63,966 nt of DNA, filler included, from a bacterium (GCA_040757115.1; 7 parts of 7 records of this genome joined end to end with filler, not necessarily neighbours in it); one strand, 5' to 3'. Counted from the first letter of the whole stretch, positions 3,890-59,013 are shown. A program made the numbers and translations. The notes: generated by a model not told the origin, from the sequence alone.

Positions 3890-4050
3890 TTTAATCTTAT
3901 CTCAATTATTCCGTTTTTTACCCCTTTAAGTGATGAAACCATAGCCAGAAGGGTATTATACATAAAATCAGCCACAAAATGACCAAGTGGTATTTTTTTA
4001 CCATTTATTTTTATTTCTATTTTTGGCTCATTAACTTTATTTTCCATCAT
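3883..4050 (-). CDS. Small hypothetical protein
   Basis: ORF overlapping the peptidase start; SD supplied by the ATTTTCAGGAG repeat half-site. Confidence 0.55.
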   Translation of the reverse strand: MMENKVNEPKIEIKINGKKIPLGHFVADFMYNTLLAMVSSLKGVKNGIIEIRLKW

Positions 4051-4210
4051 TCTCCTGAAAATAGTTTTTTCACGCAAAGGACGCAAAGGTAATTTTTTCC
4101 CTTATTTCCCTTTGGGTTCTTTGCGTGCTTGGCGTGAAACTTCCTTTTCCCTGAAAATAGGGGTTCGGGGATTCTTTTATTCCCGAATCCCTTTATTTTC
4201 ATCCTCCTTC
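4051..4210. repeat. Family-D repeat array remnant
   Basis: CTCCTGAAAAT...CCCTGAAAAT...ATTTTCATCCTCC with palindromic cargo between sites. Confidence 0.6.
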
Positions 4211-4275
4211 TTCTCCAAAGAGCAAAATGCAAAAAGCAAATATAAAAATTACATATCAAAATGTAAAATTATCTC

Positions 4276-4502
4276 GTAACTATTCAGCCACAGATGGACA
4301 CGGATGAAACACTGAAAATTCGTAATCCGTGTCCGTTTTCCGTGTCCGTAATTAGGCTGATGGCTGATGGCTGAAAATTCAGGTATAGTGCCTCGTGTCT
4401 CCTCTCCTTCTCCGTTTCTCCCTTTCTTCGTTTCCCCGTTTCCCCTCTGCCCTCTGCTATTTATCCGTGCTAATCCGTGTTAATTAGTGGCTGAATAGTT
4501 AC
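4276..4502. mobile_element. Family-E IS66-type MITE
   Basis: Perfect TIR GTAACTATTCAGCCAC / GTGGCTGAATAGTTAC; related copies at 16521, 35423 and 57871. Confidence 0.75.
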
Positions 4503-5986: not shown

Positions 5987-6099
5987 TTTAATATATCCAT
6001 AGGAAGTAGAGAGTAGAAAGTAGAGAGTAGAGAGAAAATCTTTCCTCCACCTATGTTTCCCTATTTTCATTCTTCTCGGTTCATGTCCGTTCTCCTGAA

Positions 6100-6341
6100 G
6101 TAACCGTTCAGCCACAGAGGCACAGAGTTCACAGAGAATTAGAGAAATTAGCCACAAATGGACACGAATTAACCTGTGACATTCGATAAATGTAGTGCGA
6201 ACCTTTAGGTTCGCTTTCCTGCTTGCCAGAAGCGAGGCTAAAGCCTCGCACTACAAATCTTTTTATTATTCGTGTTCATTCGTGGTTATATATTCCCTCT
6301 GTGTTCTCTGTGACTCTGTGGCTATATCCCTGAACGGTTAC
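6100..6341. mobile_element. Family-B IS66-type MITE containing a REPIN-like doublet
   Basis: TIR GTAACCGTTCAG; 8-bp TSD CTCCTGAA (6092-6099 / 6342-6349); inserted into a family-D repeat; internal GTAG-hairpin...hairpin-CTAC. Confidence 0.85.
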
Positions 6342-6362
6342 CTCCTGAAAATATCCGCAAGA

Positions 6363-7163: not shown

Positions 7164-7744
7164 CTCCTGAAAATAAGGAAGTAGAAAGTAGAGAGTAGAA
7201 AGTAGAAAGTAAAGAAAACATCACTCCTCACGCCTATCTCCTTACCTCCCATCTTCTATCTCCTACCACTATTTTCATTCTCATTTGTGAACCAACGGTT
7301 CATGACCGTTTCCCCTGAAAATCGGGACTCGGGACTCGGGGTTCGGGAAGAAAGAAACTCTCAGCAATTCCCCCTTAATAAAGGGGGTTAGGGGGTTGTC
7401 CTTCTCCCATTTTCATTGCCCTTTGTGAGCCCTGGCTCATGTCCGTTTCCCCTGAAAATAAGGAAGTAGAAAGTAGAGAGTAGAAAGTAGAAAGTAAAGA
7501 AAACATCACTCCTCACGCCTATCTCCTTACCTCCCACCTTCTATCTCTTACCACTATTTTCATTCTCATTTGTGAACCAACGGTTCATGAGCGTTTCTCC
7601 TGAAAATCGGGACTCGGGACTCGGGGTTCGGGAAGAAAGAAACTCTCAGCAATTCCCCCTTAATAAAGGGGGTTAGGGGGTTGTCCTTCTCCCATTTTCA
7701 TTGCCCTTTGTGAGCCCTGGCTCATGTCCGTTTCCCCTGAAAAT
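7164..7744. repeat. Family-D array: four ~52-bp structured repeats with alternating cargo (285-bp tandem duplication)
   Basis: Repeats at 7271-7322, 7409-7459, 7556-7607 and 7694-7744; half-site at 7164-7174. Confidence 0.9.
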
Positions 7745-7864
7745 AGTTTTTGCCACAAAGACTCAAAGGCACAAAGTATAAATTTTATGGTGACTCAATT
7801 ATTACATTTATTATAATATATAATTTTATTGATGTCAAGAAAAAATTTGGCAAGATTATGAAAC

Positions 7865-9080: not shown

Positions 9081-9229
9081 TCTCCTGAAAATAAGGAAGT
9101 AGAAAGTAGAGAGTAGAAAGTAAAGAAAACATCACTCCTCACGCTTATCTCCCTATCTCCCACCTTCTATCTCCTACCACTATTTTCATCCTCATTTGTG
9201 AACCAACGGTTCATGAGCGTTTCTCCTGA
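9081..9229. repeat. Family-D unit upstream of argJ
   Basis: Near-identical to 7164-7318; supplies the AGGAG SD of argJ. Confidence 0.8.
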
Positions 9230-9240
9230 TAACTGAAATG

Positions 9241-9474
9241 GTAACCGTTCAGATAGTAATTCACCGCAGAGGGACAGAGAAGACATGGAAATAAATCAGA
9301 TAACAGAAAAGATTAGGTAATACATAAAACATCAAAACCAAATTTGTTAATCAATCATGATATGTCGGTTCTTAAAAGCTTGCCCTGATGAAAATCAGGG
9401 ATGGAATAAAGTGTGTGGTAAATAGTTTTTTATTTTTTTCTCTGCGTCTCTGTGTCTCTGCGGTGAACGGTTAC
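9241..9474. mobile_element. Family-C IS66-type MITE
   Basis: TIR GTAACCGTTCA; 8-bp TSD CTGAAATG; MEINQITEKI remnant at 9285. Confidence 0.8.
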
Positions 9475-9535
9475 CTGAAATGGAGTATTGGAGATAATTC
9501 TATCACTCCCTTACTCCAATTCTCCCTCACTCTAA

Positions 9536-12183: not shown

Positions 12184-12419
12184 GTAAGCGTTCAGGTGGT
12201 GTAACAAAAGGAGATGTGGAGATTAAGGAGATAGGGAGATATTATAAAAAAATTGAAATTAATAGAAACTAATAGAAATTTATGGAAATTTGTTGTTTTC
12301 CACAATCAATTTCTACCTATTTCTATAAATTTCAATCTATTTCTATTATCTTATCTCCATATCACTCTTATCTCCTTATCCCCTTTCTTACACTTTTGAT
12401 ATATAGCCTGAACGGTTAC
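12184..12419 (+). mobile_element. Family-A IS66-type MITE (236 bp)
   Basis: GTAAGCGTTCAG...CTGAACGGTTAC; near-identical to five other copies. Confidence 0.9.
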
Positions 12420-16157: not shown

Positions 16158-16394
16158 GTAACCGTTCAGGCTATATATCAAAAGTGTAAGAAAGGGGATA
16201 AGGAGATAAGAGTGATATGGAGATAAGATAATAGAAATAGATTGAAATTTATAGAAATAGGTAGAAATTGATTGTGGAAAACAACAAATTTCCATAAATT
16301 TCTATTAGTTTCTATTAATTTCAATTTTTTTAATAATATCTCCCTATCTCCTTAATCTCCACATCTCCTTTTGTTACACCACCTGAACGCTTAC
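16158..16394 (-). mobile_element. Family-A IS66-type MITE nested in an older element
   Basis: 8-bp TSD GAAAAGGA; a second GTAAGCGTTCAG TIR lies at about 16129. Confidence 0.9.
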
Positions 16395-25511: not shown

Positions 25512-25748
25512 GTAAGCGTTCAGGTGGTGTAACAAAAGGAGATGTGGAGATTAAGGAGATAGGGAGATATTATTAAAAAAATTGAAATTAATAGAAACTA
25601 ATAGAAATTTATGGAAATTTGTTGTTTTCCACAATCAATTTCTACCTATTTCTATAAATTTCAATCTATTTCTATTATCTTATCTCCATATCTCCCTTAT
25701 CTCCTTATCCCCCTTCTTACACTTTTGATGCATAGCCTGAACGGTTAC
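25512..25748 (+). mobile_element. Family-A IS66-type MITE
   Basis: 237 bp; 8-bp TSD CTTTATTT. Confidence 0.9.
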
Positions 25749-34526: not shown

Positions 34527-34578
34527 GAATTTCTTTTTTGGGACGCAGATGAACGCAGATTTTCAAGATTTTAAAATA

Positions 34579-35020
34579 AAGAATTGACCGAGAAGATCAT
34601 AAAGGCATTCTACAAAGTTTATAATACCCTTGTATATGGTTTTCTGGAGAAACGCTCATGCCCACAGGGAGTGGGCACAAAGGAGGATGAAAATCGGGCA
34701 TAGAGATTAGAGATTGGAGATTAGAGATTAGCAAGAGTGCAGGTTCTAATTCACTAATTCTCTAATCTCTAATTAACTATTTTCAGGGGAAACGACCATG
34801 TCCACAGGGTGGACACAAAGGAGGATGAAAATAGTGGTAGGAGATAGAAGGTAGGAGGTAAGGAGATAGGCGTGAGGAGTGATGTTTTCTTTACTTTCTA
34901 CTTTCTACTCTCTACTTTCTACTTCCTTATTTTCAGGAGAAACCTACAGATATTGAAGTTGGACTATTACTTAATTTTGGACCTAAACCCGAAGTCAAAC
35001 GAAAGGCTTTTGATAATATG
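34579..35020 (+). pseudogene. GxxExxY gene whose middle is replaced by a family-D array
   Basis: KELTEKIIKAFYKVYNTLVYGFLEK | array 34640-34943 | TDIEVGLLLNFGPKPEVKRKAFDN. Confidence 0.8.
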
Positions 35021-35375
35021 GGAAAATAATTATACTCACCAACGGCACAAATTAAGATTTTTTAATAGGGACTCGATAGCCAGGTGATATAGGGTTTGTA
35101 AGATATATTACCATAAGTAAGTGTTAAAAAATGTCAACAATTATTGTTTTGAACCTTCAATTCAGACATAAAAAAGAAGATATAAGGGGTAATAAAAAAA
35201 AGATTATTATTTTGGATAAGGAAGATAGGGTTGATAAAAATGAGATATGTTAGTTTCTCTGATGGTGAGATTGTANNNNNNNNNNNNNNNNNNNNNNNNN
35301 NNNNNNNNNNNNNNNNNNNTTAATTAATTAANNNNNNNNNNNNNNNNNNNNNNNNNNNNNNNNNNNNNNNNNNNN

Positions 35376-47438: not shown

Positions 47439-47954
47439 ATGGAAGGTCACGGTGAGGTTATCAGTATTAGCTGGCAGATATTATTAGTCGAATTAGGTAG
47501 TTTCTTAATCTTGTTATTTTTTCTGGCAAAATTCCTTTTCAAACCGATTACTAATTTTTTAGAAAATCGCTCAAATCAGATAAAAACTACATTAGAAACC
47601 ATAGAAACAGAAAAGCAAGATATTGAAAAGATAAAGCAAAATTATCAAAATGAAATAACTGAATTAAACAAAAAGACAAGCCAGATAATTCAAGAGGCAA
47701 CTAAAGAAGGCGAAATTCAAAGGCAGAAAATAATTGCCCACTCTCAAAAAGAAGCAAATAAAATGGTAGAAAAGGCGGAACAATCCATTGAAAAAGAAAA
47801 GGAAAAAGCGATTAGTGAGATTAAAGCACAAGTAGCGGACATATCGATTCTCGCCGCCTCAAAAATCCTGGAACGCAGTATTGATGAATCAATAGCTCAT
47901 CAGTTAATAGACGAGTTTATAGAAGAAATAGACCAGGAGAAGATACCTCAATGA
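47439..47954 (+). CDS. atpF: ATP synthase F0 subunit b
   Basis: N-terminal TM, FKPI..FLE.R, coiled coil; upstream of atpH. Confidence 0.92.
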   Translation: MEGHGEVISISWQILLVELGSFLILLFFLAKFLFKPITNFLENRSNQIKTTLETIETEKQDIEKIKQNYQNEITELNKKTSQIIQEATKEGEIQRQKIIAHSQKEANKMVEKAEQSIEKEKEKAISEIKAQVADISILAASKILERSIDESIAHQLIDEFIEEIDQEKIPQ

Positions 47955-53316: not shown

Positions 53317-53354
53317 AAAAAACCCAACCTTCGCAATGATAAGATTGGGTTTTA
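53317..53354 (-). terminator. Intrinsic terminator downstream of the riboswitch
   Basis: AAAACCCAATCTT...AAGGTTGGGTTTTTT hairpin with T run. Confidence 0.65.
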
Positions 53355-53391
53355 ATTTTTTCTTTCTTTCCCGCGAAAGTAATGCTCCATA

Positions 53392-53480
53392 ATAGGTAAT
53401 CGACCGGACTCATCATTTTTTAAATGATATTACCGTTGCGGGGCAGTGCCTTGAATCTCACAAGGACTTCCTTTACCTAT
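53392..53480 (-). ncRNA. Cobalamin riboswitch (short form)
   Basis: ATAGGTAA / TTACCTAT closing stem, AAGGAAGT-CCTTGTGAGATTCAAGG-CACTGCCCCGCAACGGTAA, B12-box-like GAGTCCGG; promoter TTGACA-17-TATAAA at about 53498-53526. Confidence 0.8.
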
Positions 53481-53546
53481 CTGACTATTTTCTATTATTT
53501 ATAGCATATCACTCATTGTTTGTCAACTAAAATTTTTAAATTTTTG

Positions 53547-54074: not shown

Positions 54075-54417
54075 CCAGGCGTTGCAGTGGACAGCGGGGA
54101 ACTGTGCCCTGATTGAAAGTTTTGTAAGCGTTCAGGTGGTGTAACAAAAGGAGATGTGGAGATTAAGGAGATAGGGAGATATTATTAAAAAAATTGAAAT
54201 TAATAGAAACTAATAGAAATTTATGGAAATTTGTTGTTTTCCACAATCAATTTCTACCTATTTCTATAAATTTCAATCTATTTCTATTATCTTATCTCCA
54301 TATCACTCTTATCTCCTTATCCCCTTTCTTACACTTTTGATATATAGCCTGAACGGTTACAAAGTTTTGTAGTATTTCAATGGGTAATTATGCTTACAAA
54401 GTTTATTGGATTATCAC
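54069..54417 (+). other. attC remnant interrupted by a family-A MITE
   Basis: 54069-54123 plus 54369-54410 align with the reverse complement of attC 38796-38928; R' is missing. Confidence 0.8.
54124..54360 (+). mobile_element. Family-A IS66-type MITE
   Basis: 237 bp; 8-bp TSD AAAGTTTT. Confidence 0.92.
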
Positions 54418-57811: not shown

Positions 57812-58016
57812 CCGTTCAGGTGGTAACTTACCGCAGAGACGCAGAGGAACAGAGAAGACATAGAAATAAAGTAACTATTCAGCCACTGATTAACACGGAT
57901 TAGCACGGATAAAAAATAAAATCAGTGTTTCATCTGTGTCCATCTGTGGCTGAATAGTTATCAATAAATTTTAATTTTCTTCTCTGCGTCTCTGTGTCTC
58001 TGCGGTGAACGGTTAC
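57808..58016. mobile_element. Family-C MITE with a nested family-E MITE (57871-57960)
   Basis: GTAACCGTTCA TIRs; the comEC stop codon lies within the TIR. Confidence 0.75.
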
Positions 58017-58036
58017 CACTTATTAATCGAAATTTG

Positions 58037-58273
58037 GTAACCGTTCAGGCTATATATCAAAAGTGTAAGAAAGGGGATAAGGAGATAAGAGTGATATGGA
58101 GATAAGATAATAGAAATAGATTGAAATTTATAGAAATAGGTAGAAATTGATTGTGGAAAACAACAAATTTCCATAAATTTCTATTAGTTTCTATTAATTT
58201 CAATTTTTTTAATAATATCTCCCTATCTCCTTAATCTCCACATCTCCTTTTGTTACACCACCTGAACGCTTAC
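58037..58273 (-). mobile_element. Family-A IS66-type MITE
   Basis: 237-bp copy; no TSD seen. Confidence 0.9.
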
Positions 58274-58542: not shown

Positions 58543-58658
58543 TTTTTTCTCACCTCCTTTTTGCGACTGCATCATTTTTACATTACCACAATTCTTCAAT
58601 AATGTCAACTTATTTTTTTCTTGCAATAATTTTATATGTGTGCTATACTACAAAGGAA

Positions 58659-58873
58659 GATGAAAATTAAGGGGCTCGGGACTCGGGAATAAAAGAATCC
58701 CCGAGTCCCGAGTCCCGATTTTCAGGGGAAACGCTCATGAACCGTGGGTTCACAAACGAGGATGAAAATAGTAGGTAGGAGATAGAAGGGGGGAAGGAGA
58801 TAGGCGTGAGGAGTGATGTTTTCTTTACTTTCTACTTTCTACTCTCTACTTTCTACTTCCTTATTTTCAGGAG
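58659..58873. repeat. Family-D array upstream of alaS
   Basis: GATGAAAAT - cargo - full repeat (58718-58769) - cargo - ATTTTCAGGAG. Confidence 0.85.
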
Positions 58874-58880
58874 AGAATAA

Positions 58881-59013
58881 ATGACTGGAACAGAAATTCG
58901 CACAAAATTCTTAGATTATTTTAGCGCACTTGACCATACGATTAAAACAAGTGCCTCGCTGGTGCCGACTGACCCAACGGTTTTATTTACAATTGCCGGG
59001 ATGGTACCGTTTA
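58881..59013 (+). CDS. alaS: Alanyl-tRNA synthetase N-terminus (contig edge)
   Basis: EIR..FLDYF...H.....SLVP.DPT.LFT.AGM.PF. Confidence 0.9.

Follow-up and report, generated by a model that had tools for sequence, protein, structure and literature searches.

Arrays of family-D units in the window

The window, by which we mean the whole stretch of 63,966 nucleotides analysed here, consists of seven contigs joined by N/TTAATTAATTAA linkers and has a G+C content of 36%. One of these contigs ends within the alaS gene (ATG at 58881, plus strand), which is thereby truncated at 59013. The gene was identified through its orthologue in G001, which matches the Pfam family tRNA-synt_2c (E 3.6e-201). 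G001 is the closest of the genomes compared, belongs to the same species and has 98–99% identity to the window in unique DNA.

The alaS gene is preceded by two units of a repeat family that we refer to as family D. A sigma-70-like promoter candidate (58621–58649, plus strand; TTGCAA, 17 nt, TATACT), recognised by eye and identical in G001, sits directly upstream of the array, which would thus lie in the 5' untranslated region of alaS. The left edge of the array (ACAAAGGAAGATGAAAAT; 58650–58667, plus strand) is the same in G001 and represents only the 3' part of a conserved module, termed L (consensus ..CACAAAGGAGGATGAAAAT), the 5' part and the hairpin being absent. Some arrays begin in mid-L in this way, which is not explained by simple integration. 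The cargo of unit 1 (58668–58717, plus strand) is made of CGAGTCC and GGACTCG heptamers, and its minimum-free-energy fold is a near-perfect hairpin; in G001 another cargo occupies this position. It is followed by a complete L module (ATTTTCAGGG^GAAACGCTCATG-hairpin-CACAAACGAGGATGAAAAT; 58718–58769, plus strand), delimited by alignment of 38 such modules, which constitutes an internal junction where the right end of unit 1 is joined to the left end of unit 2 (here and below, a caret marks a junction or point of insertion). Cargo A (58770–58862, plus strand) consists of a purine-rich arm paired with (TACTTTC)n through many G-U pairs, in the sense strand only. The right end of the element, ATTTTCAGGA, together with a G contributed by the target (58863–58873, plus strand; ATTTTCAGGAG), makes the alaS Shine-Dalgarno (SD) sequence and is separated from the ATG by 7 nt (AGAATAA). 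G001 has the same right end and a spacer to the ATG that is 2 nt shorter. Identical array flanks with different cargos in the two strains fit excision and re-insertion at one target. Folding energy of the whole array is -94.8 kcal/mol in the sense and -80 kcal/mol in the antisense strand (z -6.2).

L is a 52-nt module (ATTTTCAGGGGAAACGCTCATG-hairpin-CACAAACGAGGATGAAAAT) in which GAAAC, CAT(G), CACA(A)A and ATGAAAAT show little or no variation among 38 aligned copies, and the stem of its hairpin varies with compensating changes (AACC with GGTT, AGCC with GGCT, CCCAC with GTGGG, TCCAC with GTGGA, and others). The cargo-A cluster folds in the sense strand only (mean -31.4 versus -16.6 kcal/mol). 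A general sense-strand folding bias due to G-U pairing was rejected, as four of 11 cargo clusters folded better in sense and four in antisense. Searches with Rfam 15 returned no match at the gathering score for the arrays of the window, only chance-level microRNA-like matches with E up to 10, and no match for the elements in 12 loci from other phyla. A hammerhead ribozyme, prompted by GAAAC and GAUGA, was discarded because the order and spacing of the core were wrong by eye and Rfam gave no match.

A four-unit array (7164–7745, minus strand; L at 7694–7744, 7556–7607, 7409–7459 and 7271–7322) that alternates two cargos (tandem-repeat period 285, 2.0 copies, 98% matches) precedes a motA-like gene. 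Its terminal ATTTTCAGGAG (7164–7174, minus strand) lies 9 nt before the ATG of this MotA/ExbB-family open reading frame (ORF), and the corresponding site in G001 holds half a cargo and ATTTTCAGGAG only. The argJ gene is preceded by one unit (9082–9233, minus strand), in which L (9182–9233) is followed by cargo A and the end, with ATTTTCAGGAG (9082–9092, minus strand) 11 nt before the ArgJ ATG; the argJ leader of G002 has a 21-nt spacer with GGAGAG and no element. An array remnant (4052–4204, minus strand), made up of GATGAAAAT, a hairpin, ATTTTCAGGG, a second hairpin and ATTTTCAGGAG, abuts a 52-codon ORF, and here ATTTTCAGGAG (4052–4062, minus strand) ends 1 and 4 nt before two ATGs. This ORF may not be a gene, because it has no Pfam match and is mostly missing at the same place in G001, where other repeats replace the region. 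All these distances agree with the initial annotation, which had also stated that the opposite array end carries AAGGA(G/A)GA; this was seen as ACAAAGGAAGATGAAAAT at alaS and as GAAGAAGGAGGATGAAAAT at the 5' end of the array at 4222.

A two-unit array (34639–34939, plus strand) lies inside the remnant of an ORF that is, judging from its peptide, presumably of the GxxExxY type; its left flank, TTTTCTGGA^GAAAC, is an off-target match in coding sequence. An empty target site, CAGGA^GAAG (47934–47942, plus strand), is present as the SD sequence of an atpH-like gene inside the end of an atpF-like ORF. A degenerate unit (6063–6352, minus strand), with the uninterrupted site in G001 contig C65, follows closely on the stop codon of the motA-like gene and is interrupted by a 243-bp element from a different family (6100–6341) that has terminal inverted repeats (GTAACCGTTCAG) and a target duplication (TTCAGGAG), unlike family D.

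Distribution and relation to gene starts

The assemblies of the window and of G001 are short-read assemblies broken at family-D repeats, and the order of units inside arrays could be mis-assembled; contigs of G001 and Logan contigs end at these repeats. The region is present in three groundwater metagenome runs of one study, for which no RNA run is listed, and in those runs the summed word depth over the repeats exceeds the depth of the unique DNA alongside (about 280) by a factor of tens to hundreds. The internal junction ATTTTCAGGRGAAACG, allowing at most one mismatch, has 112 matches in G001 and none for a reversed-pattern control. Among 60 relatives, only G001 and G003 (13 matches) exceeded the background of 0–4 matches. 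G003 belongs to another genus of the same family; its L, its cargo A and its ends at gene starts are as described above.

Within the window, ATTTTCAGGAG with at most one mismatch occurs 15 times versus 3.18 expected, a number reached in none of 100 shuffles. We scored gene starts in an unselected sample of 80 G001 contigs (849,210 bp), requiring a start codon 1–20 nt downstream, an ORF of at least 80 amino acids and an in-frame stop at most 30 codons upstream. Such a start lay downstream of 8 of 17 non-internal ATTTTCAGG(A/G)G sites, as compared with 337 of 5180 other GGAG motifs (Fisher p 5e-6 versus array ends) and 646 of 33898 random positions (p 4e-10). Parsed arrays ending in the motif had a start within 0–20 nt in 36 of 66 cases (window 3/6, unselected G001 6/10, selected G001 loci 23/44, G003 4/6), mostly at spacings of 4–8 nt; starts were counted if they opened 60 codons or more, or 25 or more where the contig ends. 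The other 30 of the 66 array ends had no recognisable start downstream. The enrichment of half-sites at start codons that the initial annotation had anticipated thus extends over the G001 sample (8/17 versus 646/33898 at random). Its statement that the half-sites are always in gene-sense orientation stands within the window and fails genome-wide: with a rough ORF caller, the downstream gene was co-oriented with the array in 45 cases and opposite in nine, and the upstream gene in 61 and 10 cases, respectively.

Insertion into the Shine-Dalgarno sequence

An empty and a filled allele were compared at the atp locus, the one such site found by local BLAST of the window against the retrieved G001 loci. 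The window has the empty site (...ATAGACCAGGAGAAGATACCTCAATG), at which the end of the atpF-like ORF overlaps the start of the atpH-like gene, and G001 has the filled one (...ATAGACCAG^CAGAACGCTCATG..(about 290 bp, two units)..CTATTTTCAG^GAGAAGATACCACAATG). The native SD sequence of the atpH-like gene contains the insert, whose right junction recreates CAGGAGAAG with the spacing unchanged. At the left junction, CAGCAGAACG stands where CAGGAGAAACG was expected, a difference of one substitution and one missing A.

Array-initial left flanks (n = 31) are conserved only at positions -4 to -1 before GAAAC (A 28, G 29, G 27, A 26) and are variable further upstream of this AGGA. Three related genera without the element have AAAGGAGtaaaATG, AGAGGAGtaaaATG and TGGAGAGtaaaATG at the corresponding place of their alaS leaders, that is, AAAGGAG, AGAGGAG or TGGAGAG followed by taaaATG. 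The proposal that the element recombines at an AGGAG core, and so targets SD sequences and regenerates them, is therefore borne out by the empty and filled atp alleles, the 31 flanks and the element-free alaS leaders, in which an AGGAG-like SD sequence is present at the orthologous empty site. Crossover appears to take place between AGGA and GAA, the element giving AGGA and the target giving the next G. Insertion in leaders may offer the safe haven suggested at the same time.

Insertion of family D is sequence- and orientation-specific and involves neither terminal inverted repeats at the unit ends nor any target duplication beyond the core. The two ends, GAAACG... and ...ATTTTCAGGA, do not form an inverted repeat; a shared GAA core lies within the element consensus.

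Relatives in other phyla and the IS110-type transposase

Species-representative genomes were scanned with an L pattern of 23 specified bases, taken from the invariant positions. The motif was present in at least 120 genome stretches, with organism labels including Bacteroidota, Deltaproteobacteria/Syntrophaceae, Nitrospirae, Pseudomonadota, Spirochaetota, Chlamydiota and others. In these, L begins ATGAAACG and the unit ends ..ATTT(T/A)CGG^ATGAAA, the latter being the start codon of the host gene. In a Nitrospirae example the junctions read ATTTCAAATGAAA^cgctc and ATTTTCAAATGAAA^gtgaagg, and the downstream gene is, judging from its peptide, presumably penicillin-binding-protein-like. Some Bacteroidota units contain, by eye, an ORF from the old ATG to a TGA that overlaps the new ATG. 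A leader peptide or termination-reinitiation was rejected as a general function, as other subtypes have early stops and the frame in the present arrays stops inside L or cargo.

At three loci, in Spirochaetota, Chlamydiota and Bacteroidota metagenome-assembled genomes (MAGs), an IS110-family transposase gene lies immediately after L, between it and the ATTTTC end; that Bacteroidota MAG gives 29 of the 80 rows among the matches listed. Two complete transposases match both PF01548 and PF02371, namely P0003 (E 7e-27 and 9e-16) and P0004 (E 3e-25 and 5e-20). We examined the first 53 of 80 metagenomic loci with relatives of P0004. Among the 25 loci with an identity of at least 50%, 11 carried L upstream of the gene at a distance of 41–90 nt, and eight more had a degenerate L by eye; below 50% identity, L was found at one of 28 loci, 204 nt upstream of the gene.

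Searches of G001, G003 and three other element-bearing genomes with P0004 revealed no close homologue, only distant relatives. The matches are IS110 genes with 34% and 28% identity and without L in G001 and G003, and no full-length cognate transposase gene was found in these two assemblies. As candidates for the cognate gene, the IS110-type genes L324 and L327 of G001 were rejected because they have neither L nor an ATTTTC end. Y1 transposases were likewise rejected as movers of family D, as PF01797 matches do not follow its distribution.

Guide-like segments downstream of the transposase gene

The full element, as present in other genomes, is composed of a GAAAC left end with L, the DEDD transposase gene, a non-coding region of about 150–300 nt with a conserved stem, and a right end of ATTT(T/A)C plus four bases. 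The downstream region has the architecture GGTCG..CTGGTGG..CCCCG-NNNN-GAAACTGAC..stem..AAGAACAAAGGAATG..GCACGC-NNNN-GAAATTTT..stem, with two variable four-base segments that are both followed by GAAA. In 10 of 13 loci, segment 1 is identical to the tetranucleotide that borders GAAAC on the left, and in the other three it agrees in three of four bases (seven tetranucleotides). Segment 2 is identical to the final four bases of the right end in 15 of 17 loci and agrees in three of four in the remaining two (six tetranucleotides). The related elements L339–L342 have a common segment 1, TTAT, at four different sites with the left flanks TTAT, ATAT, GTAT and TTAT, and segment 1 has therefore not been copied locally from the flank. 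The segments lie about 100–250 nt from the element ends in a separate structured region. By direct helix search, a stem enclosing segment 2 was identified in 15 of 15 loci, in 12 sequence versions with compensating changes; the longest helix averaged 9.3 bp with the own partner and 6.5 bp with the partners of other loci. RNAalifold applied to the downstream region did not recover this long-range stem. The co-variation of the segments with flank and end is, as judged from sequence, the same signature as in bridge and seek RNAs (PMC11208160, PMC11187229).

The sequence GCAGGAGAAATTTT, expected beforehand from the model, has exactly one exact match in the 4.7 Mb of G001. This match lies within the conserved downstream architecture, 31 nt after an ORF that ends in NIGYDVVLLKKAA and a stop; the ORFs of relatives end in ..NLGYGVTLQPLAA and ..HLGYEVTLQEAA, each followed by a stop, with a spacing of 25–34 nt. 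The region is situated at a contig edge (contig C572), which retains only the last 13 codons of the gene. Its segments read AAGGA-GAAAC (first segment CCCCGAAGGAGAAACTGAC) and CAGGA-GAAA, and the guide word, AAGGA^GAAAC, coincides with the consensus of the 31 left flanks. At its end, CATTTTCAGG^GGAAAC, the region passes directly into an array of three family-D units that precedes a gene start. The right end of C572 reads AGGG, and segment 2 reads AGGA. We saw by eye no -10 box across the ATTTTCAGGA^GAAAC junction of C572, and no further copy of the downstream region was detected in G001 or in G002–G005.

Proposed mechanism of targeting

Family D probably descends from an IS110/IS1111-type element. 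We consider it quite probable that its units are transposase-less mini-derivatives of an RNA-guided IS110/IS1111-type insertion sequence (IS) that is aimed at SD sequences, often in head-to-tail arrangement; targeting is most likely guided by the RNA of such an element. Segment 1 would match the four bases left of the insertion point (target) and segment 2 the last four bases of the element (donor), with the GAAA after both segments as the shared core for strand exchange. The downstream region would be transcribed and act as guide RNA for the DEDD recombinase, and mini-units, consisting of L, any cargo and a ATTTTCAGGA end, would be moved in trans as circles. The predicted target of a mini-unit is AAGGAGAAA, with oriented insertion at AGGA^GAA. 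Because the G001 segments read as they do (AAGGA-GAAAC and CAGGA-GAAA), the element would be aimed at AAGGA^GAA, an SD sequence. After insertion the old AGGA would remain at the left junction and the right junction would read ..ATTTTCAGGA^GAA.., so that the gene would keep an SD sequence at the same distance to its ATG. Each internal junction would again be a good target, allowing further units to be added and arrays to form. Scarless excision and re-insertion would swap units at one site, and insertion would be harmless as the SD sequence is rebuilt.

We lean, if narrowly, towards a wider reading in which a single RNA-guided IS110/IS1111-type lineage has spread over many phyla, is specialised on the signal for translation initiation and has had its guide re-written to suit the host. 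Bacteroidota and some Nitrospirae and Spirochaetota would then have the target xxAT^GAAA, the ATGAAA start codon, and the present Omnitrophota-like lineage the target AAGGA^GAA, the SD sequence; SD sequences are largely lacking in Bacteroidota. As donor and target words are almost identical, insertion would rebuild the signal and leave new targets, and gene-less mini-copies could accumulate in essential-gene 5' leaders without switching the genes off. Such copies may come to tune translation.

Comparison with known systems

In family D, as opposed to IS621/IS110, donor and target are nearly the same word, so that junctions remain targets; the core appears to be GA(A), unlike that of IS621, which is CT. 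The RNA of IS110/IS1111 elements is reported to derive from a non-coding region, and its loops to pair with 8–14 nt of target and donor around a short core (PMC11208160). The IS621/IS110 bridge RNA resembles the arrangement described here in having two guide regions (for target and donor), a short shared core and 8–14 nt that are recognised, and scarless excision as reported there would explain the exchange of units at one site; the IS110 group has its RNA upstream of the gene (PMC11208160), the present elements their guide-like region downstream.

IS1111 elements with seekRNA, such as ISEc11, share with the present elements a DEDD transposase, a long non-coding region downstream of the gene, short segments that match target and ends, and oriented insertion at one sequence (PMC11187229). 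The same text describes mini IS with intact ends that move when transposase and non-coding region are supplied in trans, to which we liken the mini-units (PMC11187229). It gives attC, a transposon end or REP as IS1111 targets, in place of the translation signal used here, and describes sub-terminal inverted repeats of 11–13 bp, located 6–7 bp inside the left end and 3 bp inside the right one (PMC11187229). Repeats of this type were not seen in our elements, in which the sole inverted pair is 7 bp long (TGAAAAT and ATTTTCA); its right copy has the same 3-bp distance to the end that IS1111 elements show, and its left copy is about 45 nt inside. A further difference from IS1111 is the presence of more than 100 gene-less copies in arrays.

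MITEPpu9/ssr9 of ISPpu9 is likewise reported to be a gene-less module with IS110-type ends; it forms its own circles and has spread in the genome via the transposase of the IS, and ISPpu9 is reported to have no promoter across the joined ends (PMC12288879). That module comprises eight copies, at REP sequences and with one defined sRNA gene (PMC12288879), versus more than 100 junctions at ribosome-binding sites, many hairpin cargos and tandem arrays in family D. Tandem non-coding units reported beside IS110 genes are also arranged head-to-tail with boundaries that keep donor-arm matches; those units adjoin the transposase gene, whereas the present ones are dispersed, gene-less and located at gene starts (10.64898/2026.08.14.744561). 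The TAACTGA heptamers reported from Beggiatoaceae are heptamer repeats in many 5' leaders of an uncultivated bacterium and are similar in cargo make-up only, being direct repeats without an L module or ATTTTC end (PMC4679880). REP/BIME elements with RAYT share the mosaic intergenic hairpin arrays, the high copy number and the role as targets of other IS; family D differs from them in having no Y1 link, no conserved hairpin sequence and a position fixed at the SD sequence. The terminal inverted repeats and fixed-length duplication of a classical (DDE) MITE are both absent from family D.

Alternative explanations

Origin without a dedicated enzyme, by homologous or microhomology recombination and slippage between the 16-nt junctions followed by selection for SD-giving copies, is unlikely in our view. 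The swapping of cargo between strains with identical flanks, the 2-nt difference at the right junction of alaS and an assembly without a complete transposase gene would all suit it. New sites share only 4–5 nt (AGGA) plus GAA with the element, however, which is too little for homologous recombination; these shared bases are those specified by the guide-like segment in the same genome, and the atp insertion is base-precise on the right side. Still less probable are REP/BIME- or PATE-like elements moved single-stranded by a Y1 (HUH) transposase (RAYT or IS200/IS605 TnpA), with the hairpin as recognition structure and a short flanking word as cleavage and target site. Modules that alternate as in BIMEs, conserved hairpin flanks, regeneration of the element's own target word and nine PF01797 matches in G001 speak for such a mover, but G004 also has nine PF01797 matches and no family D, and G003 has family D with fragmentary matches only. 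The stem sequence of a REP is read by its RAYT, whereas the stem of the L hairpin is free to vary from copy to copy in a single genome. An IS110-type gene occupies the space from L to the ATTTTC end in three phyla and at least 11 metagenomic loci, and the co-varying segments do not lie at the foot of a terminal hairpin.

A reading of the arrays as cis-regulatory leaders of the host (thermometer, riboswitch or mRNA stabiliser), not as mobile DNA, is suggested by their location in 5' untranslated regions, in sense orientation and behind promoters, by the strong folding (z -6.2) and by the sense-only folding of cargo A. This we regard as highly improbable, given that presence and absence differ within one species, that more than 100 junctions precede unrelated genes, that one copy lies inside a coding remnant and that the array type is not conserved across genera at alaS or argJ; Rfam provided no match, and the sense preference is not general (four sense and four antisense among 11 cargo clusters). 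An assembly artefact in which repeats were mis-joined to gene starts might be suspected where G001 and Logan contigs break at repeats and the window itself is a chain of short contigs. Two separate assemblies nevertheless agree on both alaS flanks and on the motA-like array end, the same arrangement recurs in a third genome from another genus, and public MAGs of unrelated studies show the element at gene starts, which leaves this explanation scarcely credible.

Implications

The IS110 link and the SD-aimed variant represented by family D are new here. In the literature searched we encountered neither an IS110-type lineage directed at SD sequences or start codons nor dispersed arrays of its mini-derivatives, although supplementary files may contain such cases. 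For annotation, starts and SD motifs behind the arrays can be trusted, and short ORFs within arrays should not be annotated as genes. If family D consists of derivatives of an IS110/IS1111-type element, it provides a natural case of high-copy miniature IS110-type derivatives, together with natural examples of short (about 4+4 nt) re-programmed guides with matched targets. Recombinases guided by bridge or seek RNAs pick repeats, for example REP or attC, as landing sites. A guide that spells the ribosome-binding site or start codon would, if true, be a different strategy, with a target before nearly every gene that is repaired on insertion. The IS110-derivative reading would give one common explanation for the hairpin repeats at start codons in Bacteroidota and would also explain a large part of the repeats that fill gene leaders in this genome.

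Family D arrays and genome assembly

Many contigs of G001, the closest of the genomes compared and of the same species, stop about 110 nt past a family D junction (e.g., C121, C169, C217, C141, and C149), and the ends beyond these junctions often consist of one shared cargo (GATGAAAAT TTTGCTTGAATTTCCAGC...). Family D is a main cause of assembly breaks in G001, and its copy number in this genome is too low as counted.

Insertions and rearrangements at family D sites

A family D junction in the window is the insertion site of a 243-bp element of another family (6100–6341, minus strand), which has GTAACCGTTCAG inverted ends, CACAGAG heptamers, and an 8-bp duplication (TTCAGGAG). On contig C65 of G001, the same junction is uninterrupted and free of the element. 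The G001 matches listed include roughly 40 copies that are nearly full-length. A second copy in the window (approx. 9250–9520) is flanked on both sides by CATTTCAG. The intergenic region at 3909–4502 has a size of 594 bp, compared with 158 bp of unrelated repeats in its G001 counterpart (C65:5140–5299), and the 52-codon ORF behind its family D array is present in the window only and absent in G001. At 34540–35030 (plus strand), an ORF remnant, the translated ends of which resemble a putative GxxExxY-type protein, lacks its middle part and carries a two-unit family D array in its place, which points to a deletion next to the array or to two insertions having recombined with each other.

Other repeats and leader elements

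Further dispersed repeat families (AAGGAGATAGGGAGATT, AATAGAAATT ×4, and AATTTCAACCTATTTCTATA) are located at 57832–58263, 12208–12346, 16231–16370, 25536–25715, and 54148–54287. In the groundwater metagenome run X1, the summed word depth of these families exceeds that of unique sequence (~280) several-hundredfold, so small repeats saturate the genome. An AdoCbl riboswitch was identified at 53352–53496 on the minus strand (Rfam RF01482, 54.4 bits, gathering score 50).

The related genomes G005 (locus L433) and G002 (locus L434) lack family D, and their alaS leaders have other heptamer-armed hairpins approximately 150 nt upstream of alaS, which are likewise preceded by the conserved CTTGACAAGTTT promoter box. 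Several kinds of leader hairpin have been gained and lost at alaS.

Full-length elements at the metagenomic loci L348 and L338 have themselves inserted beside gene-less mini-units of the same family or have such units after them; thus, insertion sequences and mini-units share arrays in other phyla too.
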